Program-made: the position numbers and the translations under genes
Assembly: GCA_002842045.1 (NCBI GenBank)
Contig: PHBX01000010.1
Span: 6,267 to 70,266, forward strand
Length of the DNA: 64,000 nucleotides
Origin: Chloroflexi bacterium HGW-Chloroflexi-3
GTDB taxonomy: Bacteria > Chloroflexota > Anaerolineae > Anaerolineales > Anaerolineaceae
Direction of reading: 5' to 3'
Shown here: piece after piece, positions 21,736 through 54,001 of the stretch
How positions within the stretch are numbered: the first letter of the stretch is position 1
Layout: each line of letters starts with the position of its first letter
Notes under the pieces: generated by a model
Told to the model about the DNA's origin: nothing
What the model saw: the letters and a program-made list of their open reading frames with translations, nothing else
Database searches by the model: none

Positions 21736-23463
21736 ATGAACCCACCGACCTGGATTGGACAGACGTTAAGTGGCCGATATAAAATTGAAGCGTTATTAGG
21801 GCAGGGTGGTATGTCTGCCGTGTACAAGGCTTATGATCCCAACCTGAAACGCGTGGTGGCAGTGAAGCTGGTGCATTCGCATCTGAGCTCAGACCAGGAA
21901 TTCGTTAAACGTTTCGAAGAAGAAGCATCAGTGGTGGCTTCCTTGCGGCATCCCAATATTGTCCAGGTTTATGATTTCAACACTGATCAGGGGATTAATT
22001 ACATGATAATGGAATTTGTCCCGGGCGAGACCTTACAGGAACGCCTCAAACGACTAAACGAAAGTAATCGACGGATGTCCCTGGAAGAAGCCTTAAAGAT
22101 AACGATTAATATCTGTGATGCCTTAAGTTACGCCCACAAACGCGGTATGGTACACCGCGATATCAAGCCTGCCAATATTATGCTGGATGTCAACAATCAA
22201 GCCATCCTGATGGATTTTGGTATCGTGAAGATCCTGGGTGGGTCCTCCCATACTGTTACCGGAGCCGTGATGGGGACGGCGCGATACATGCCACCTGAGG
22301 TTGTGCGTTCGGAACCTGCTGACCAGCGTTCGGATATCTATGCCCTGGGGATTACCCTGTATGAAATGTTGAGTGGTAAGCCGCCTTTCGAAGCAAATTC
22401 AGTCATGACCGTCATGATGATGCATCTCAATGATCCGGTTCCCGATATTAGACCATTAAGGACCGATCTGGATCCACAATTGGTACCGGTATTAATGAAA
22501 GTGTTGGCCAAAGATCGCAACCAGCGCTATTCTTCCACGGATGAATTTTCTGCAGCGTTAAAAAGAATCCAGCACGGATTGGAGAACAATATTGGAATAG
22601 CACATGAAAATCAACCCACAGTTTTTCCTGCTTCCAAACCTGTTCCCTCCCAACCGGTTACGACACCAGAAAACAGAGTTTCACAAATCGGTCAAGGCAA
22701 TCCACCCAGCCGACCAAATCCTGGTTCGGTTCCCATGGGATATCAAAATACAGTTTACGATTCTTCCATCCGAACATCAGTTTCAGGATCCAATCCAGCC
22801 CTTCCTGTCCATCCTGTGTCCAATTTGACTTCAGAACCACAAAAGCAGAAATCAAAGCGTTGGATGTGGATCGTCGGGATAGGTGGTGCTGCATTCCTTC
22901 TCCTTGTTGGTGTAATTGTCATAGGTGGCATTCTTCTGTCCCAGATGAGGGACAGGCGGACTGCTGATGTTAAAGAGACTGAAAGTGTAGCTCTTGTGAT
23001 GCAAACCGAAAGTGCAAATATTTTCTCTGACAATCTGGTGGAAACCACCAACACGATTGCGCCTACCCGGAATCTACCAACGGCGACATTTCAGCCCTCT
23101 GCCACGTTTGTTGCTACCAAGGTACCCACCACACCAACGCCAACATACCCACCACTGTATGTGAAGATCAATGAAATCACATTCACCTCATCCAATCAAT
23201 ACTCGGTGGCATATGAAACTTTTGGATATACCGAAGTCTTGCCAGGTCAACACATCCATTTCTTCTTTGATACGGTTAAGCCGGAAAACGCCGGTATGCC
23301 AGGAACAGGTCCCTGGATTTTATACGGTGGGCCACGACCTTTCACCGGGTATAGTGTCTATCAAAAACCAAGAGATGCCACACAGATGTGCGCATTGGTT
23401 GCCAATGCCAATCATTCGATCATTTTAGAGAGCGGAAATTGTGTGGACTTGCCGGTAAATTAG
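21736..23463 (+). CDS. Hanks-type Ser/Thr protein kinase with TM segment and extracellular C-terminal domain
   Basis: 575 aa with canonical motifs: GQGGMSAVYKA, VAVK, HRDIKPANIML, DFGI, YMPPE. A Pro/Ser-rich linker and a TM segment (WMWIVGIGGAAFLLLVGVIVIGGILL) precede a ~130-aa C-terminal domain. Confidence 0.9.
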   Translation: MNPPTWIGQTLSGRYKIEALLGQGGMSAVYKAYDPNLKRVVAVKLVHSHLSSDQEFVKRFEEEASVVASLRHPNIVQVYDFNTDQGINYMIMEFVPGETLQERLKRLNESNRRMSLEEALKITINICDALSYAHKRGMVHRDIKPANIMLDVNNQAILMDFGIVKILGGSSHTVTGAVMGTARYMPPEVVRSEPADQRSDIYALGITLYEMLSGKPPFEANSVMTVMMMHLNDPVPDIRPLRTDLDPQLVPVLMKVLAKDRNQRYSSTDEFSAALKRIQHGLENNIGIAHENQPTVFPASKPVPSQPVTTPENRVSQIGQGNPPSRPNPGSVPMGYQNTVYDSSIRTSVSGSNPALPVHPVSNLTSEPQKQKSKRWMWIVGIGGAAFLLLVGVIVIGGILLSQMRDRRTADVKETESVALVMQTESANIFSDNLVETTNTIAPTRNLPTATFQPSATFVATKVPTTPTPTYPPLYVKINEITFTSSNQYSVAYETFGYTEVLPGQHIHFFFDTVKPENAGMPGTGPWILYGGPRPFTGYSVYQKPRDATQMCALVANANHSIILESGNCVDLPVN

Positions 23464-47845: not shown

Positions 47846-47933
47846 ATTATTTTTTTCCTAACAAATTTGATTATTGAAAATTGGGGAATTAAGTCATAAT
47901 ATAGATATAACTTTATACATTTGATATTAATAA

Positions 47934-47961
47934 TTGAATTCGTCTGCTTTTTTGCTATACT
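47934..47961 (+). promoter_or_regulatory. candidate sigma-70-type promoter of the T7SS-like operon
   Basis: TTGAAT (47934-47939), a 16-nt spacer, then TATACT (47956-47961), about 55 nt upstream of the first gene. The AT-rich context raises the chance of a spurious match. Confidence 0.3.
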
Positions 47962-47985
47962 ATTAAATATTATTGACCGAATTAT

Positions 47986-48000
47986 TCAATTATTAATTGA
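47986..48000. promoter_or_regulatory. 7-1-7 palindrome between candidate promoter and RBS
   Basis: TCAATTA-T-TAATTGA immediately upstream of AGGAGG (48005-48010). It could be an operator, or a chance match in AT-rich DNA. Confidence 0.2.
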
Positions 48001-48015
48001 TAATAGGAGGGACGA

Positions 48016-50349
48016 TTGAATGCAATGCTGAAAAAAGCTTTGCCGTACCTGCTTATTGGTGTTTTGTTTTTTTCCATCATCATTGAGGCATTTGCCCAAT
48101 CACAACCAGATGTGCGAATTAATACCGTTTCCACCATAGAATTGCCAGATTCTGTCAATTTAAAGGTTTATTTTAATTTATTTGACAAACAAACTGGTCA
48201 GGCAATTACCGATATCACCCCGGAAACTGCTCAAATCACATTGTTGAATACCGGTTTGACAACCGGAGGGGTGATCAAGCAACCGGATATTCCCATTTAT
48301 ATCACCATGGTACTGGATGCAAGCGGGAGTATGTCCGGTGCGCAGGCGCAACTCAAAGATGCAGCCAAACTGGCATTAACCAACGTACCCAATGATGCCT
48401 TTTTCTCGGTGGTTCAATTTGATGAAGAAATCGTACTTTTGCAGGATTTCACCGAGAATCAATCTGCCATCAGCTTCGCTATTGATCAGTTGAAGGTGAC
48501 GGGAAGAGGAACCTGCCTTTATGATGCTGCTTATACCGCAGTGGAAGCCATGGAGAAAGCGCCAGTTGGCAGGCGTGCGGTGATTCTCTTTACCGATGGG
48601 AAAGATGAAACCAAAGAAGGAAAAGTGTGCAGCCAGCATACTTACCGGGAACTGGTTGATAAAGCCATGAAAGCCCAGGTTCCGATCCACACGATTGGAT
48701 TATCTGTTTCAGCAGGAAACATCAACGCGGTTGAGTTGGAAAATATGGCTGCCAGCACCGGTGGATTTTCGGCTATCGGAAACGAAAGCCAGCTGAAGAA
48801 TTCCTTTGAGCAAATTATGCTCGGGTTGAAAGCCCAATGGATGGTGGAATCCAGTGTCTATCCCAGGCAGGGTGATAATAACGCTGTTTTAACCATGAAT
48901 TTGAAAGATGCAGGAGAAACTAGCACAGCATTTATCGTCACATCCAGTAAAGAATACCCGGGTCCCCCTAGCCCAGTGTCGGCTAAGCTGGATGGGTTTG
49001 CTTTACGTCCCGAAACAATGACTTATGATGTACAGATCTCGCTTACCTCGCCGGAGATGGTTAATTATTTGCGCGTAGCCATTTGGGAAAAAGAAGGTGG
49101 ATCCAAAATAACCGAATTTATCTTTGAAAACCTGGCAAGTTTCAACACACTCAATATCCCAACCAATGCATTGACCGCCGGTCGTGATTACGAAATGAGG
49201 ATCGTCGCTACCGATAAAGAAAATAATTTCCCCTTTGCGATCGTGAAGGACGATCAGGGGAAAGCATTCACCGAATTAATTCACGAATTCAAATTTGATC
49301 CATCCGGTGTTTTGCCAAAGTTGAGTATTCAATCGGTGATTCAGGACAACAACGATCTGGTGATTCAAATAGCCACCACCAACCCGCTCCTGGTGAAAGG
49401 ATATGATGGGTGGCTAATTGATGAAGAAACCAACACGGTTGTTCCCAATTCAACCTTCAGCAGTGATGTGCTTCCGAATGGCAGTGGTTCGATCACCATT
49501 CCGATGGTGGAAGCAAAAGTTCCATCAGGAAAATACACCATTCTGGTGAGGGCTCTGGGGGAAGGAACCAGTGTATTTGCGTCCCAGCAATACAATGGGG
49601 TGGTGTACCAGACCAAGAAAGTATCGATATTTGAGCGGGTTTTTTCAGCCTTAAGAGCATCACCAATTTTCTTCTACATCATTCTTGGAATTATTCTGGT
49701 CGTAATAGCCTTCCTGATGATCTATAACTGGAGAGAGAAATCTCTCTCTGGAACGCCGGTCATGCAGGGTCGATTAGGTGGCCAAATGAAAGCCAAACGA
49801 GGGATAAAAGAACCTTCCCCGTTTGCGGATCACGAACCCATTCCTGGAGCTTCGGTGGCACGACCAGTCCAACCTTCTCCAGTAAAAATACCTGGACCGC
49901 AAGCTTATGATTTACCCGTGATGCCTACACCGGTAGCAAAACCAACACCGGCAAGTGTACCACCCGATCAGCTGGATCAAACAATCGTCGGGGCACCCCC
50001 TATGGGAGATGCGACGCTGGTTTCACCCGCCATCAAATTGCCCTCGTTATCTGTGGTAAACGCACCACCAGGCGTATTATCACCTGGGCAAAAAATCAGT
50101 GTGCAGCAATTACCGTTTACGATCGGACGAGTAGGTGCCATGTTGACCGTTAGCGAGGCCAGTGTTTCCCGCTTGCATGCTCAAATTTCAATGGATCCTC
50201 AAACCAAGCGATTCATGATTACGGATATGAATAGCAGTAATGGAACCCGGGTAAATGGAACTCCATTGACCCCTGGCCAATCGTCGTTCTTAAATCATGG
50301 CAGTCGTATTCAAATTGGACCCAATGTAGAAATCGTTTTTGAAAATTAA
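48016..50349 (+). CDS. bitopic vWA - Ig-like region - TM - Pro-rich linker - FHA protein
   Basis: 777 aa. Start is TTG 48016 or ATG 48025, after AGGAGG. Signal/TM N-terminus and a vWA domain with MIDAS DASGSMSG (about 48316-48337). A beta-rich middle and a TM segment (IFFYIILGIILVVIAFLMIY) follow. The C-terminal FHA reads FTIGRV..VSRLHAQI..SSNGTRVNG. Confidence 0.8.
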   Translation: MNAMLKKALPYLLIGVLFFSIIIEAFAQSQPDVRINTVSTIELPDSVNLKVYFNLFDKQTGQAITDITPETAQITLLNTGLTTGGVIKQPDIPIYITMVLDASGSMSGAQAQLKDAAKLALTNVPNDAFFSVVQFDEEIVLLQDFTENQSAISFAIDQLKVTGRGTCLYDAAYTAVEAMEKAPVGRRAVILFTDGKDETKEGKVCSQHTYRELVDKAMKAQVPIHTIGLSVSAGNINAVELENMAASTGGFSAIGNESQLKNSFEQIMLGLKAQWMVESSVYPRQGDNNAVLTMNLKDAGETSTAFIVTSSKEYPGPPSPVSAKLDGFALRPETMTYDVQISLTSPEMVNYLRVAIWEKEGGSKITEFIFENLASFNTLNIPTNALTAGRDYEMRIVATDKENNFPFAIVKDDQGKAFTELIHEFKFDPSGVLPKLSIQSVIQDNNDLVIQIATTNPLLVKGYDGWLIDEETNTVVPNSTFSSDVLPNGSGSITIPMVEAKVPSGKYTILVRALGEGTSVFASQQYNGVVYQTKKVSIFERVFSALRASPIFFYIILGIILVVIAFLMIYNWREKSLSGTPVMQGRLGGQMKAKRGIKEPSPFADHEPIPGASVARPVQPSPVKIPGPQAYDLPVMPTPVAKPTPASVPPDQLDQTIVGAPPMGDATLVSPAIKLPSLSVVNAPPGVLSPGQKISVQQLPFTIGRVGAMLTVSEASVSRLHAQISMDPQTKRFMITDMNSSNGTRVNGTPLTPGQSSFLNHGSRIQIGPNVEIVFEN

Positions 50350-50367: not shown

Positions 50368-51375
50368 ATGGCTGATAAAACAATACTTGATATCCAGGCA
50401 ATTGATGCCCTCCGTAAAAAATTTCAGAATGAAGGGGAAGAACTTGCGGAATTAACCGTTAGAACCCGACAAAAAGTGCACAATCTGCAAAAGGATTGGA
50501 TTGGGCTGGGATCGGATGCATTCTTCGATGAAATGGAAATGGTGCTTTTGCCTGCCATGAAGCGTTTGTTCGAAGCCATGATGCGCTCCTCAGATGTTCT
50601 GGGAGATATTAAGAAAATCTACCGAAATGCTGAAGATCAAAGTGCCAATTTCTTTAAAGGTGATTTTGAAAATGTCAATTTAGGCACGACTGATTTTGGT
50701 GCCGGGCAATTTGGCGGAGCAGGTGGTTCTGGTGTGAATTTAGGTCAGACCGATTTCGGGGCAGGACAATTTGGTGCTACAGGTGGCGGCGGAGGAGCTG
50801 GTTTAGGCGAAACAGACTTCGGTGCCAGCCAATTTGGTGGGTCTGGGGGTACGCAGGGAGGAACCGGATTGGGTGAGACTGATTTCGGAGCAGGTCAGTT
50901 TGGTGGCCAACAAGGTGCTACCCCCGGTGGCGATTCAGGATCTGGACAAGCCCCACAGCCACAGCAAGCAACCCAACCACTTGAGACAAAAATGGATTCC
51001 TCAGCAGGCGCAGGTAGTGGCGGAGGAGGCACTGGGGGTGGTGATAGTTCCGGGATGCAAGGGGACCTGAACAATATGGGAACCGGACTGGGTGGTTCGC
51101 AGTCCTCCTCGGGATTTAGCGGTGGAGGTGGCACTTCCGGAGGTGGGTCCGGAACACCTATGTCTGATCATGTTTATCAAAGTGTTGGTTCATCATCTCC
51201 TGGTGGAGGTGTTTCATCTGGACCATCCGGTGCACCAGCTCCCAGCAGCAGCCCACCACCGCCTTCTGAGGGTGGTGAGGGCATCTCGACGGCTGGAACA
51301 GCTGGCGTAGTTGGTGGCGTTGGTGCTGCGGCGGCGGCAGCCAAAAAAGTTGTCAAAGACAAAGATAACAAATAG
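50368..51375 (+). CDS. WXG100-like protein with long Gly-rich repeat tail
   Basis: The first ~100 aa are paralogous to the next gene (W-I-G in ..KDWIGLGSDAFFDEM..). A YRNAE (YxxxE) motif lies at 50620-50634. Four LG-x-TDFGAGQFGG repeats, a Gly/Ser-rich tract and a hydrophobic Ala/Gly/Val C-terminus follow. Confidence 0.65.
   Translation: MADKTILDIQAIDALRKKFQNEGEELAELTVRTRQKVHNLQKDWIGLGSDAFFDEMEMVLLPAMKRLFEAMMRSSDVLGDIKKIYRNAEDQSANFFKGDFENVNLGTTDFGAGQFGGAGGSGVNLGQTDFGAGQFGATGGGGGAGLGETDFGASQFGGSGGTQGGTGLGETDFGAGQFGGQQGATPGGDSGSGQAPQPQQATQPLETKMDSSAGAGSGGGGTGGGDSSGMQGDLNNMGTGLGGSQSSSGFSGGGGTSGGGSGTPMSDHVYQSVGSSSPGGGVSSGPSGAPAPSSSPPPPSEGGEGISTAGTAGVVGGVGAAAAAAKKVVKDKDNK
50677..50907 (+). repeat. 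four imperfect in-frame tandem repeats (about 57-66 nt) encoding NLG(T/Q/E)TDFGAGQFGG + Gly spacer
   Basis: Read directly from the sequence: NLGTTDFGAGQFGG / NLGQTDFGAGQFGA / LGETDFGASQFGG / LGETDFGAGQFGG. Confidence 0.8.
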
Positions 51376-51524: not shown

Positions 51525-51827
51525 ATGGCCGATAGAACTGAACTTAATGGCGAACAATTGGCACAAATGATGAAGAAATTTCAAAGTGAAGCGGATGAAT
51601 TAAACCAACTGCTTGGCCAAACCCGGAATAAAATTGGTACTTTAAGAAGTAGTGGCTGGGTAGGACGTGGATCAGACCAATTCTACAATGAGATGGAATC
51701 GCTGGTGTTGCCTGCTGTACAACGGTTAGTTGCTGCGCTTAATGCTGCATCCAACCAGGTGAATGCGATCATGAAGATTTATGATGATGCGCAGAATCAA
51801 GCGCAATCTTTGTATAAATTAGAGTAG
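51525..51827 (+). CDS. WXG100-family (ESAT-6-like) protein
   Basis: 100 aa, predicted helix-turn-helix with central W-V-G (..SSGWVGRGSDQFYNEM..). RBS AAAGGA lies upstream. Confidence 0.7.
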   Translation: MADRTELNGEQLAQMMKKFQSEADELNQLLGQTRNKIGTLRSSGWVGRGSDQFYNEMESLVLPAVQRLVAALNAASNQVNAIMKIYDDAQNQAQSLYKLE

Positions 51828-51858
51828 AACAAAAAACCATCCATAAAGGAGATAAACA

Positions 51859-52155
51859 ATGGCTGACAAGATTAAACTAAATTATCCACAGATGGAAGAA
51901 ATGGCGCAACACATGAAGGCTGTTTCACAACGATTGCTGCAGACCACTCGCCTGGCACGCTCGATTGCACAGGAAATGCAAGGAGGTGCTCTGGTTGGTG
52001 ATGCGGGCGAAGCCTTCGTGAATGCTTTGAACAGCGCATTTGTTCCCGGTGTGACTAAATTGAGCCAGAAATTTGATGAAGTATCAAAAGATATCACACA
52101 AGCAATTAACGACATGAAATCTGCCGATAGTCGCTCTCGCTCAGAATTCAGATAG
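51859..52155 (+). CDS. WXG100-like small helical protein (degenerate motif L-V-G)
   Basis: 98 aa with the same length and layout. The central ..GGALVGDAGEAFVNAL.. lacks the Trp. RBS AAGGAG. Confidence 0.5.
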   Translation: MADKIKLNYPQMEEMAQHMKAVSQRLLQTTRLARSIAQEMQGGALVGDAGEAFVNALNSAFVPGVTKLSQKFDEVSKDITQAINDMKSADSRSRSEFR

Positions 52156-52171
52156 GATTTGGAGGATTATT

Positions 52172-52504
52172 ATGAACTTTATTCTAAAATTGGTATATTC
52201 AGCAGTAAATGGCGTTATGGGTCAAATTAAAAAACTGTTGAATCAAATCACTTCCGAAATCACTTCCCCATTACGGGGGATGGTCCAACAAGTCGTTGGT
52301 GGCGTTTGGAAGGGAGATGGAGCAACACGCTTTGTGCAAGAAATGCAAACATTGGTTATTCCAGCGTTGTTATCCCTGGTTGGGGTCAATACCAGTTTTG
52401 TTAACGCGCTTCAAAAATCAACTGAGATATTTCGAAATGCCGACAAACAGGCCACTTCCAAAGCTAATGAATTACTGGACATTTTTGGCGGTATATTCAA
52501 ATAA
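52172..52504 (+). CDS. WXG100-like small helical protein
   Basis: 110 aa with central W-K-G (..GGVWKGDGATRFVQEM..). RBS GGAGGA. Confidence 0.55.
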   Translation: MNFILKLVYSAVNGVMGQIKKLLNQITSEITSPLRGMVQQVVGGVWKGDGATRFVQEMQTLVIPALLSLVGVNTSFVNALQKSTEIFRNADKQATSKANELLDIFGGIFK

Positions 52505-52532
52505 CCTGCAATAAAAGAAAAGGAGATGCAAA

Positions 52533-52832
52533 ATGGCTCAAGAAGTATATATGGACGTTCCAGCAGTCCAAAAAATCGCTAGTAATTTTGGCAAATTTGG
52601 CCAGACATTGAAGCGTATTGCCAAAGGTTTGGAAACTGCCATTATGGTATTGAAGGCTACCGCATTTGTAGGCATGATCGGTAACCTGGCAGTGGCTTCT
52701 TACCTCGAAAGGATCAAACCCCGGGTTGAAAAATTAGCCGAAGACATGATTGAACTTCAACATGATGTCAATGCAGCCGTCAAACATTATCAAACCGGTG
52801 ATTTGAGTGGTTCAGCTCGCTTCCGCAGTTGA
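52533..52832 (+). CDS. small helical protein, possible divergent WXG100-type partner
   Basis: 99 aa. No WXG; a hydrophobic central turn (..ATAFVGMIGNLA..). RBS AAGGAG. Assigned by size and position only. Confidence 0.4.
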   Translation: MAQEVYMDVPAVQKIASNFGKFGQTLKRIAKGLETAIMVLKATAFVGMIGNLAVASYLERIKPRVEKLAEDMIELQHDVNAAVKHYQTGDLSGSARFRS

Positions 52833-52933: not shown

Positions 52934-54001
52934 ATGAATCGAATTTGTCTCAAGTGTAATGTCATCTCTCAGGATTTCAATCTCTGGTGCCAGGAGAAAT
53001 ATTGCCCGGCGGAAAATGCGACCGAAATTTTCAATAATGGAGAATGGTTTGGTATCTTTGAAATCGTTCAGCCATTATTGATCCTTCGTTCTGCGATTGT
53101 ATACCAGGCACGCCGGGAAGAAGAGATTGTTTTTCTAAAAATTGCCAATACAGGTTGCGAGGACAAATTAAGGCAGGAAGCCATCGCCTTTTACCAGCTC
53201 GCAAAAGCCGGTCAACATCCGTTGTTACCTATATTATTACCAGCCCATCCTCAAAGCACCATCGCCCAACACCCCTATGGTTGGACAGTGATTCAGGGAA
53301 AAGTAAAATATTATTCAGTATTTAAATTCGTTGAAGGGGAAGTTCTCAGGAATTATTTATATAAAAATCCACAACCCTGGTTTCAACATGTAGGTTGGAT
53401 CGGACTCAGTGTCAGTGACGTGGTTTATTATTTACATCGCGCTGGAAAGATTCACCTCTGTTTGAACCCGGATGTTGTTTACTTACGTTTTGATAAGCAG
53501 GGAATTCCAAGGCCCATGTTACTGGACCTGGGGGTAGGGGATTTAAGCAACAATATCTCACAAATCTGGAACGACCAGTACAATCTACCCGCTTATACGC
53601 CGCCAGAAATTCTGAAAAACGATAATCAGGTCTCGCATGCTGCTGATGTGTATGGGATCGGTTTACTGATGTACGAAATGTTAACTGGCCATCCTGCTTA
53701 TGAATATCACTTAAAAAAAGATGATACGGTTGCCAATATGGTAAAAAGTGGCGTATTTAAACCCACAGGTAGAATTGATCTTAAAGAAATTCCTGCAATC
53801 GTGGAGAAAGCCATCAATGTTCACCCTCAAGCACGTTTTACGGATGTTTTATCCCTGGTTAATACGTTAAAACCATATTTTCCCCCCATTCCTGCGGAGA
53901 AAAAATCGAGAGGTATCAATTGGAAATTGGTTTTCATCGTCCTGGCGGCTTTATTGGCCATTTCATTAATTTTAAGTTTTGCAGTTTCACTGATGCAATG
54001 A
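52934..54001 (+). CDS. zinc-ribbon + degenerate protein-kinase-like domain + C-terminal TM (predicted pseudokinase; EssB/YukC-like by inference)
   Basis: 355 aa. N-terminal CLKC..C..C. Kinase-like blocks: VFLKIA, EAIAFYQL, YYLHRAGKIH, DLG, YTPPE, DVYGIGLLMYEMLTG. There is no Gly-rich loop. The catalytic loop reads HLCLNPD (53453-53473) instead of HRDxKPxN. TM segment: LVFIVLAALLAISLILSFAV. Confidence 0.6.
   Translation: MNRICLKCNVISQDFNLWCQEKYCPAENATEIFNNGEWFGIFEIVQPLLILRSAIVYQARREEEIVFLKIANTGCEDKLRQEAIAFYQLAKAGQHPLLPILLPAHPQSTIAQHPYGWTVIQGKVKYYSVFKFVEGEVLRNYLYKNPQPWFQHVGWIGLSVSDVVYYLHRAGKIHLCLNPDVVYLRFDKQGIPRPMLLDLGVGDLSNNISQIWNDQYNLPAYTPPEILKNDNQVSHAADVYGIGLLMYEMLTGHPAYEYHLKKDDTVANMVKSGVFKPTGRIDLKEIPAIVEKAINVHPQARFTDVLSLVNTLKPYFPPIPAEKKSRGINWKLVFIVLAALLAISLILSFAVSLMQ

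Follow-up and report, generated by a model that had tools for sequence, protein, structure and literature searches.

The biology of type VII secretion systems (T7SSs) rests on Actinomycetota and Bacillota. Of Chloroflexota, the T7SS literature says no more than that they have some WXG100 sequences (PMC10765036), and the phylum is missing from the census of T7SS variants published in 2024 (PMC11217815). The 64,000-nucleotide stretch of DNA analysed here, referred to as the window, originates from Chloroflexi bacterium HGW-Chloroflexi-3 of the class Anaerolineae (contig PHBX01000010.1, positions 6,267 to 70,266) and contains a T7SS-like operon, the first gene of which encodes a protein with a von Willebrand factor A (vWA) domain, a single transmembrane (TM) helix and a C-terminal forkhead-associated (FHA) domain. 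The protein is a conserved, previously undescribed T7SS-like component in which familiar parts are found in a new arrangement and a new host system; its gene holds a fixed first position, and it is akin to vWA-TM-FHA proteins from modules with Hanks kinases and PP2C phosphatases. It probably serves as a lineage-specific type I (bitopic) membrane subunit or regulator that couples a head with a metal ion-dependent adhesion site (MIDAS) to phosphothreonine-dependent docking at the EssC machine. As such it would mark a third-phylum variant of the T7SS, in which a metal-dependent extracellular head and a phosphothreonine reader are united in one chain.

Within the T7SS field, comparable parts are known from the subtypes T7SSc-j described by Garrett, Higginson and Palmer in Bacillota and Actinomycetota only, which include kinases, PPM phosphatases, separate FHA proteins and the vWA protein TscE (PMC11217815). 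Besides TscE, these comprise the membrane kinases TscD and TsdD, the PPM phosphatase TscF, the FHA proteins TseJ and TsfJ, and TshM, which is kinase-like and ends in a TM helix; components of the FHA, kinase and phosphatase types recur among the variants (PMC11217815). The likeness to the window locus lies in the presence of vWA, FHA, kinase-like and phosphatase genes inside EssC/WXG100 loci, and phospho-regulation has been proposed there (PMC11217815). However, TscE is predicted to be cytoplasmic, with neither a signal peptide nor a TM helix, whereas the window protein has both, and no described T7SS subtype has a membrane-spanning protein that unites vWA and FHA domains, nor does any come from Chloroflexota (PMC11217815).

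In the threat-sensing Esr pathway of Actinomycetales, described in a 2026 preprint, a surface sensor acts through a kinase on a phosphothreonine-binding FHA protein that controls Esx (PMC13622651). The pathway consists of the sensor EsrA, a MoxR-vWA pair, the kinase EsrE, the phosphatase EsrF and the FHA output protein EsrG, and resembles the model proposed here: following a surface event, a protein that ends in an FHA domain becomes phosphorylated on Thr within its disordered region, and this controls a T7SS (PMC13622651). In contrast to the single polypeptide with a conserved head encoded in the window, Esr is spread over many proteins, its vWA domain is paired with a MoxR ATPase and its beta-propeller sensor is diversified. 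An earlier, sequence-only reading of the window had held that no such component is known in characterised T7SSs; the statement holds for the fused vWA-TM-FHA protein, but not for its parts, as separate vWA, FHA, kinase and phosphatase components have been described (PMC11217815, PMC13622651).

Outside the T7SS, a similar combination, and the nearest functional parallel, is found in the PpkA/PppA/Fha1 threonine phosphorylation pathway of type VI secretion (T6SS), where, as here, an extracytoplasmic vWA domain, a Hanks fold, an FHA domain and a PP2C phosphatase are associated with a secretion locus (PMC3224232, PMC3953482). PpkA is a kinase carrying an extracellular vWA domain (PMC3224232), Fha1 is the reader of the phospho-signal (PMC3224232, PMC3953482), and in both PpkA and the window protein a single TM helix parts the vWA domain from the phospho-signalling portion (PMC3224232, PMC3953482). 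PpkA, however, fuses the vWA domain to a kinase in an N-in orientation, whereas the window protein fuses it to an FHA domain in an N-out orientation; furthermore, the kinase of the window locus is a pseudokinase, and the machine is T7SS-like and from Chloroflexota. The window protein is not of the PpkA type, as its chain gave no kinase match and the kinase fold is encoded by a separate gene (52934-54001). The vWA/kinase/FHA logic of the T6SS would then recur in an unrelated export machine.

The best solved-structure matches of both halves are to the archaeal proteins ArnA (FHA; 5a8i and 8s05_C, E ~6e-11) and ArnB (vWA; 8s05_A/B, Foldseek E 2.5e-11). In Sulfolobus, ArnA and ArnB, the latter consisting of a vWA domain and a beta-sandwich, form a phosphorylation-dependent vWA-FHA partnership (PMC6509490, PMC12852372), but they are two soluble cytoplasmic regulators of archaellum expression, whereas the window protein carries the two domains in one chain across the membrane. 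Like the window protein, SctD (YscD/PrgH) of the inner-membrane ring of type III secretion and GltG of the Myxococcus gliding machinery are bitopic and combine an FHA-type domain in the cytoplasm with several domains beyond the membrane; they are core scaffolds of an envelope machine and differ in the reversed order with an N-terminal FHA domain and in the lack of a vWA domain, and the FHA domain of SctD is phosphate-independent. The match to the SctD profile PF16697 (25.9 bits) is below the cut-off of 33.2, and the NCBIfam match to GltG is likewise weak and sub-cut-off. EsaA/YueB of the T7SSb is cited as a membrane component whose large extracellular domain would reach through the wall (PMC11217815); EsaA, however, is polytopic and helical, has neither a vWA nor an FHA domain, and was not found to resemble the window protein in sequence or domains. 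The literature covered, which leaves out most subscription journals, gave no account of a vWA-TM-FHA protein or of this Chloroflexota locus, an absence that is less than certain.

Linkage of the vWA-TM-FHA gene to T7SS loci

A pattern scan with one genome per GTDB species matched 183 species genomes, and the best 80 loci were examined by querying them with the downstream proteins of the window to score EssC, pseudokinase and WXG100 genes. Among the 57 loci with at least 8 kb of downstream sequence, taken as informative, EssC is present in 52, the pseudokinase in 53 and two or more WXG100 genes in 51, while at least one of these markers is found in 55. All 42 loci at 40% identity or above are T7SS-linked, mostly with the same nine-gene order, in which the vWA-TM-FHA gene is followed by WXG100 genes, the pseudokinase, EssC and a YukD-FHA-FHA gene. 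The placement of homologues relative to T7SS genes is therefore non-random, and genetic linkage to both EssC/EccC and WXG100 genes is evident. The sequence-only reading had taken the gene for the first of a T7SS-like operon, with 18 nt between its stop and the first WXG100-like gene; the synteny and the coordinates (stop codon ending at 50349, next ATG at 50368) agree with both statements, and the conserved block begins at the vWA-TM-FHA gene because the upstream genes (UPF0029, GNAT) are common to the 11 closest loci only.

The linkage is likewise kept where the locus is rearranged. EssC and the YukD-FHA gene lie upstream in L052 and L070, the T7SS genes are divergent in L055, L059 and L077, and the linkage persists through rearrangement to ~29% identity (these five loci and L066). 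This bears on the possibility that the product is a neighbouring but separate signalling protein, for instance an envelope or filament regulator that shares a promoter with the T7SS genes. Distant paralogues are indeed found in kinase/PP2C modules without nearby T7SS genes, and vWA, kinase, FHA and PP2C genes form operons in unrelated contexts, as in Deinococcus DRA0331-0334 (bioRxiv 10.64898/2026.01.23.701218), with ArnA/ArnB as a further instance of such a set outside the T7SS (PMC6509490). However, the linkage survives changes of order and orientation, the genes flanking the block are not conserved, and the 18-nt gap suggests co-expression with the first WXG100 gene, all of which make a separate function very improbable. 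Other identities were also considered and rejected: a T7SS substrate, on account of the Sec-type signal peptide and TM helix and the lack of a WXG or LXG domain; an ordinary surface adhesin adjacent by chance, on account of the conserved synteny; and an EssB or EsaA homologue, for want of a family match. The Pfam and NCBIfam searches gave no match to EsaA, EssA, EssB, EccB/D/E, MycP, EspG, TscE or other T7SS component families.

By its sequences the vWA-TM-FHA family is confined to Chloroflexota, all of the 80 best loci being labelled as such except for one contig in a metagenome-assembled genome (MAG) called Bacteroidetes. That contig (L037, JAGXRB010000116.1) is 7.5 kb long, carries an Anaerolineae-type locus within a MAG named 'Bacteroidetes bacterium' and is probably mis-binned. 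In a representative set of 1.84 billion proteins (clusters at 50% identity, E <=1e-30), 542 clusters match, and the best 150 are mostly 700-1000 aa long with separate matches to the ectodomain and the FHA domain. In its own genome the gene is single-copy.

The converse relationship was assessed in 201 genomes of the same class, Anaerolineae, a sample that proved sparse. Five of these, the own genome aside, contain a close EssC (at least 44% identity): G157, G186 and G074 have a clear vWA-TM-FHA protein, G042 has a vWA fragment only, at a contig end, and G158 gave FHA hits only. Nine genomes with more distant EssC-like genes did not contain the protein. This suggests that the vWA-TM-FHA protein goes with one EssC lineage, which does not by itself prove an obligatory pairing.

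Architecture of the protein across the membrane

Domains were assigned by Pfam gathering scores and NCBIfam cut-offs, and structures by AlphaFold2 (AF2) and Foldseek. AF2 was run for the whole protein with a 27-sequence alignment (mean predicted local distance difference test score, pLDDT, 76.5) and for the middle region alone with 38 sequences (pLDDT 87). Conservation was read from the same 27 sequences (47-79% identity), from a wider set of 66 homologues (to 28% identity) and from 62 tails; mean pairwise identities given below refer to the 27 homologues. The sequence-only reading had drawn, from N- to C-terminus, a signal or TM segment, a vWA domain with an intact MIDAS, a beta-rich region of ~250 aa, a single TM helix, a Pro-rich linker and a canonical FHA domain, and every part of this outline is borne out by the profiles, hydropathy and models.

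First, the vWA assignment is supported by several profiles of the superfamily (PF00092, PF13519 and PF13768), with VWA_2 matching aa 98-196 (E 8.5e-15, 55.7 bits, cut-off 27), VWA aa 96-264 (E 9.7e-13, 49.1 bits, cut-off 23.8) and VWA_3 at 39.4 bits (cut-off 27); the subfamily profile TIGR03436 (acidobact_VWFA) likewise matches aa 53-277 over its positions 32-288 of 324 (87.5 bits, cut-off 81.25). The MIDAS string DASGSMSG occupies aa 101-108, and all five MIDAS residues (D101, S103, S105, T166 and D194) are each present in 65-66 of the 66 homologues, down to 28% identity. The head is thus predicted to be MIDAS-competent and to bind a ligand through a divalent metal. C167, located beside the MIDAS T166, and C205 are the only Cys residues of the protein, and their pairwise conservation in all 66 homologues fits a disulphide. 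In the AF2 model, aa 94-272 alternate between strands and helices in an alpha/beta Rossmann-like fold, and the strands on its two sides (aa 28-93 and 273-312) appear to come together as a flanking beta-sandwich. A vWA domain with an attached beta-sandwich is found by Foldseek in 4fx5, the pilus tip protein Mfa5, ArnB (8s05) and ITIH1, and free vWA domains in BatB and CMG2/ANTXR2, with target-normalised TM-scores up to 0.8 for the vWA matches to 4fx5, BatB, CMG2/ANTXR2 and Mfa5. The vWA part matches ArnB (8s05_A) by sequence as well. The vWA domain has a mean pairwise identity of 68%.

The middle region (aa 265-548) is all-beta in AF2 (pLDDT 87), with two sandwiches modelled at approximately 323-427 and 436-531, and Foldseek relates it to fibronectin-III (FN3), immunoglobulin (Ig)-like and adhesin-extender repeats (E ~1e-5 to 1e-6). 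As modelled, it is a generic stalk of no specific family; its Ig-like domains are 53-57% identical on average. In some homologues of 861-887 aa (P0047, P0050 and L040; alignment columns 578-677) an extra insert of ~100 aa repeats the last Ig-like domain before the TM helix, and the length of the stalk therefore varies.

Next, the topology follows from the presence of two hydrophobic segments only (19-residue window, Kyte-Doolittle >1.6), at aa 3-30 and aa 542-575 with a core at 548-570. The first has a Sec-type shape and ends in AFA/QS, the stroke marking the cleavage-type site; the predicted first mature residue, Q28, is a Gln in 59 of 66 homologues, and the signal-peptide region as a whole has a mean pairwise identity of only 23%, its character being kept and its sequence not. 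A lone signal segment followed by a lone TM helix must put the vWA and FHA domains on different sides of the membrane. Since an FHA domain outside the cell would be without phosphorylated partners, and positive charges at the N-terminus favour N-in insertion of the signal segment, the head is placed outside, in agreement with the invariant Cys pair, the Ig-like stalk and the signal region. The Lys and Arg residues flanking the TM helix, four before and three after it, are alone not decisive for the orientation. We strongly infer that the vWA and FHA domains lie on opposite membrane sides with the head outside.

Finally, the cytoplasmic tail combines a juxtamembrane motif, which at 81% shows the highest mean pairwise identity in the protein, with a drifting linker (31%) and the FHA domain (48%). 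The core of the motif, G-T-x-[V/F/A]-[L/M], lies within 30 residues past the TM helix in 49 of the 62 tails against 0.8 expected from composition, and is kept as TGTPFLQ, TGTDFLS or TGTGFLS in relatives of 29-40% identity. The linker is rich in Pro (21% of residues 576-690) and modelled as disordered (573-673, pLDDT <50), and a [D/H]-x-T-phi-phi motif is found in 38 of 62 linkers versus 0.9 expected, in the window protein as DQTIV and DATLV; these tail counts are inflated by shared ancestry, yet the motifs are prominent in an otherwise drifting region. A Thr with a hydrophobic residue at +3 is a classic preference of many FHA domains and Hanks kinases, and the tail Thr residues are candidate phospho-sites. 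The FHA domain itself is matched by PF00498 at aa 702-768 (E 1.2e-14, 55 bits, cut-off 20.7) over profile positions 2-67 of 67, and is modelled as a sandwich at aa 677-776. Its Foldseek matches are the FHA domains of ArnA and DgcB (target-normalised TM-scores 0.73-0.88), and its sequence relatives with a solved structure are ArnA (5a8i, 8s05_C) and the mycobacterial FhaA. The 27-sequence alignment shows no variation at G704, R705, S718, R719, H721, S740 and N742, and the six of these that were counted in the wider set (all but S740) are each retained in at least 62 of the 66 homologues, down to 28% identity; from the contact residues kept, the domain is predicted to be of the phosphothreonine-binding type.

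A head of this kind on a single TM helix could also belong to an outside-in receptor, where a MIDAS ligand (a neighbour cell, an envelope fragment or a metal) would shift the oligomeric state across the membrane and switch the phospho-Thr/FHA state of the tail, making firing cue-dependent, in analogy to integrin I-domain signalling or PpkA dimerisation. The complete and invariant MIDAS, the invariant disulphide-type Cys pair beside two MIDAS loops, and the single TM helix directly followed by the most conserved motif of the protein would all suit such a receptor. Threat sensors, however, are usually diversified, and here the vWA head is the most conserved domain, which makes a constant partner likelier than a variable threat. 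Surface sensing does have precedents in phosphothreonine/FHA control of secretion, namely PpkA (PMC3224232) and Esr (PMC13622651), but within the Esr pathway no part varies more than the propeller of EsrA (PMC13622651), and the conserved head described here fits a constant self partner better. The receptor explanation, which overlaps with the proposed subunit or regulator and differs only in whether the head carries information, is accordingly considered rather improbable. A more specific and similarly doubtful version is an integrin-like receptor gating secretion, in which MIDAS occupancy would reorganise the TM helix and the G-T-P-V-M motif and so establish the phospho-Thr/FHA state by which YukD-FHA-FHA and EssC are recruited; the ligand could be on the surface of a neighbouring filament or be the own Gly-rich WXG protein with its TDFGAGQFGG repeats. 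If true, the Chloroflexota T7SS would be contact- or product-gated by one polypeptide that combines the tasks of PpkA and Fha1.

Kinases, phosphatases and the proposed role

The kinase-like gene of the operon (52934-54001) encodes a predicted pseudokinase, which keeps the beta-3 Lys, the alpha-C Glu and the DLG and PPE motifs, but has HLCLNPD where kinases have HRDLKPxN. With a dead kinase and no phosphatase at the locus, phosphorylation would need trans-acting enzymes; nine Pkinase genes (strong, near-full-length matches) and two PP2C genes are found elsewhere in the own genome, and phosphorylation in trans by these kinases is possible. A 576-aa Hanks kinase encoded at 21766-23106 of the window, ~25 kb upstream of the operon, is 34-36% identical to kinases of sister loci. 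It is the best match in its genome to the locus-linked kinases of the sister lineages and a candidate trans-acting kinase. Elsewhere in the genome, beyond the window, genes for an FHA-domain protein, a PP2C and two Hanks kinases are clustered (G000:C6:47287-54193) in a manner that resembles the fhaA-pstP-pknAB-type cell-envelope clusters of Actinobacteria.

In sister lineages such enzymes are encoded at the locus itself. A membrane PP2C gene starts a few nt after the vWA-TM-FHA gene in L068, L072, L074 and L080, and L066, L068, L072 and L074 contain, besides the pseudokinase, WXG100 and EssC genes, a membrane kinase with intact HRD[I/L/V]KPxN, D[F/Y]G and VA[I/V]K motifs. Paralogous vWA-TM-FHA modules without T7SS genes but with PP2C and/or active kinases are found in L064, L065, L067, L071 and L075, and the zinc-ribbon kinase of L075 aligns with the operon pseudokinase. 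In L064, L065, L075, L073 and L077 the module has a tandem pair of vWA-TM-FHA genes together with either a ~270-300 aa membrane protein or a zinc-ribbon kinase, and also a PP2C of ~540-570 aa; it stands alone in the first three, whereas in L073 and L077, where the membrane protein is the small one, a T7SS block abuts it. In a quick maximum-likelihood tree the kinase/PP2C-linked copies form one clade (Shimodaira-Hasegawa-like approximate likelihood ratio test, SH-aLRT, 100), which also holds L073 and L077, while the clade of the window protein has 41 members, every one of them T7SS-linked (SH-aLRT 94). The simplest history would be that a vWA-TM-FHA/kinase/phosphatase set joined an EssC/WXG100 system, and that the lineage of the window kept only the FHA-bearing receptor and a dead kinase. 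Two natural states of the locus, one with an intact kinase and phosphatase and one with a dead kinase only, can thus be compared, and the contrast offers a comparative test of Thr-phosphorylation control over T7SS assembly.

These findings bear on whether phosphate is needed at all. A purely structural subunit would be a wall-spanning stalk or anchor that does the job of EsaA or EccB, with an FHA domain docking phosphate-independently to the pseudokinase, EssC or YukD-FHA-FHA and with no signalling. The constant position of the gene at the head of the operon, the high conservation of an ectodomain that is not diversified, the catalytically dead kinase, the absent phosphatase and the weak, sub-cut-off resemblance to the SctD FHA-like profile (25.9 bits) would be in line with such a subunit, as would the T7SSb precedent, where the FHA domains of EssC bind the EssB pseudokinase without phosphate (PMC11217815). 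Yet in FHA domains that work without phosphate, those of T7SSb EssC for example, the phosphothreonine-binding residues have been lost (PMC11217815), whereas here at least 62 of 66 homologues keep G-R, S-R-x-H and N, and in the lineage of the window the FHA ligand residues are not relaxed. Furthermore, Thr-centred motifs are kept in a tail that otherwise drifts freely, and PP2C and intact kinase genes adjoin the gene in sister loci, which together render a purely structural role unlikely. Of the phospho-Thr dependence proposed in the sequence-only reading, the comparative side holds, in the FHA residues, the Thr motifs and the PP2C and kinase of sister loci, but the operon kinase, lacking the catalytic Asp, does not fit it.

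By analogy with the PpkA-PppA-Fha1 logic of the T6SS, the subunit or regulator proposed here would then act as follows. Tail Thr residues, T580 in G-T-x-phi-[L/M] and those of the D-x-T-phi-phi motifs, would be phosphorylated by a Hanks kinase, which is locus-encoded in sister lineages and would here be one of the nine encoded elsewhere in the genome. The phospho-sites would be read by FHA domains, either that of the protein itself in trans or the two of the YukD-FHA-FHA adaptor, upon which the protein would oligomerise or dock onto the pseudokinase/EssC complex and license assembly or firing. On the outside, the head would bind a conserved acidic ligand via its metal site, with an envelope component or polymer, a part of the machine or a secreted WXG-type product as candidates, and would then either anchor or extend the machine through the wall in an EsaA-like role, or report ligand occupancy inward. 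A scaffold combined with a phospho-switch is slightly favoured over a pure sensor.

Several points weigh against this proposal. The catalytic Asp, Lys and Asn are gone in all 57 T7SS-linked pseudokinase orthologues, with C, S, N or L in place of the Asp, and the window locus carries no phosphatase gene. FHA domains can act without phosphate, as in T7SSb EssC and SctD, and the juxtamembrane motif may simply serve for docking and be no phospho-site. Two of the 57 informative loci (L064 and L065) and three shorter ones hold paralogues without nearby T7SS genes. The placement of the head is read from hydropathy, the cleavage-site pattern, the Cys pair and the domain types, and all carriers found are uncultured MAGs, for which reason heterologous or biochemical work is needed.

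Coordinates and neighbouring genes

The open reading frame of the vWA-TM-FHA gene is uninterrupted over 777 codons, with AGGAGG 4 nt ahead of the TTG start and the in-frame ATG as an equally plausible start (Table 1). Promoter-like matches in the upstream region (47846..48015) are no more frequent than in shuffled sequence.

Table 1. Positions of the described features in the window and in related loci (locus handle given before the coordinates).
Feature	Position	Strand	Remarks
vWA-TM-FHA gene, 777 aa	48016..50349	+	TTG 48016 start; ATG 48025 alternative
Signal peptide, aa 1-27	48016..48096	+	KK n-region, hydrophobic core, AFA/Q cleavage-type site
N-terminal beta strands, aa 28-93	48097..48294	+	AF2 model (strands aa 31-88)
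vWA domain, aa 94-272	48295..48831	+	complete MIDAS; invariant C167/C205
Post-vWA beta strands, aa 273-312	48832..48951	+	AF2 (275-310); second sandwich half
Two Ig/FN3-like beta-sandwich domains, aa 313-430 and 431-535, stalk	48952..49620	+	AF2, Foldseek
TM helix, aa 548-570	49657..49725	+	hydropathy, AF2; preceded by amphipathic helix aa 538-548
Juxtamembrane motif KSLSGTPVMQGRLGG, aa 575-589	49738..49782	+	near-invariant; T580 candidate phospho-acceptor, hydrophobic at +3
Disordered Pro-rich linker, aa 590-675	49783..50040	+	invariant EP (aa 607-608); DQTIV (T656), DATLV (T667)
FHA domain, aa 676-777	50041..50346	+	G704, R705, S718, R719, H721, N742 present
Intergenic region, AT-rich, 170 nt	47846..48015	+	two sigma-70-like sites (47874-47902, 47934-47961), AGGAGG ribosome-binding site
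WXG100-like protein, Gly-rich tail with TDFGAGQFGG repeats	50368..51375	+	next gene, 18 nt downstream
Four WXG100-type genes, ~100 aa each	51525..52832	+	profile matches, synteny
Zinc-ribbon pseudokinase (predicted), C-terminal membrane anchor	52934..54001	+	HLCLNPD replaces HRDLKPxN
EssC/EccC-type ATPase, three FtsK domains, without N-terminal FHA domains	54020..58600	+	profile matches
YukD-like ubiquitin fold fused to two FHA domains	58604..59620	+	profile matches
PP2C and membrane Hanks kinase (490-1057 aa)	L068:12750-17617, L072:12738-18186, L074:12604-17946		PP2C immediately after vWA-TM-FHA gene; kinase alongside the pseudokinase
Paralogous module	L064:9875-17037, L065:10007-17228, L075:7240-14799 (alone); L073:10001-16485, L077:6530-13284 (abut T7SS block)

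The WXG100-like product of the next gene (50368-51375) contains the LG-x-TDFGAGQFGG repeat four times, an extended stretch of Gly and Ser, and a hydrophobic, Lys-rich C-terminal end; the Asp in each repeat might, speculatively, serve as a ligand for the MIDAS head. EssC (1526 aa) scores 733 bits on TIGR03928 and also exceeds the EccCb cut-off, and by these scores is a true T7SS ATPase; the YukD-FHA-FHA gene begins 3 nt after it. The string 'PSGTRDIPSPP' at the EssC N-terminus was considered as a phospho-motif and rejected, as it presumably corresponds to the general N-terminal motif of EccC/EssC proteins. The closest EssC orthologues from two other families (G042:C7:30787-39264, G157:C81:1620-10013, G158:C81:4827-13343 and G186:C11:2253-10670) are frames of ~2930-2970 aa, approximately double the length of the window's EssC, in which the ATPase region of the query matches two or three times, and look like EssC proteins with duplicated ATPase modules.

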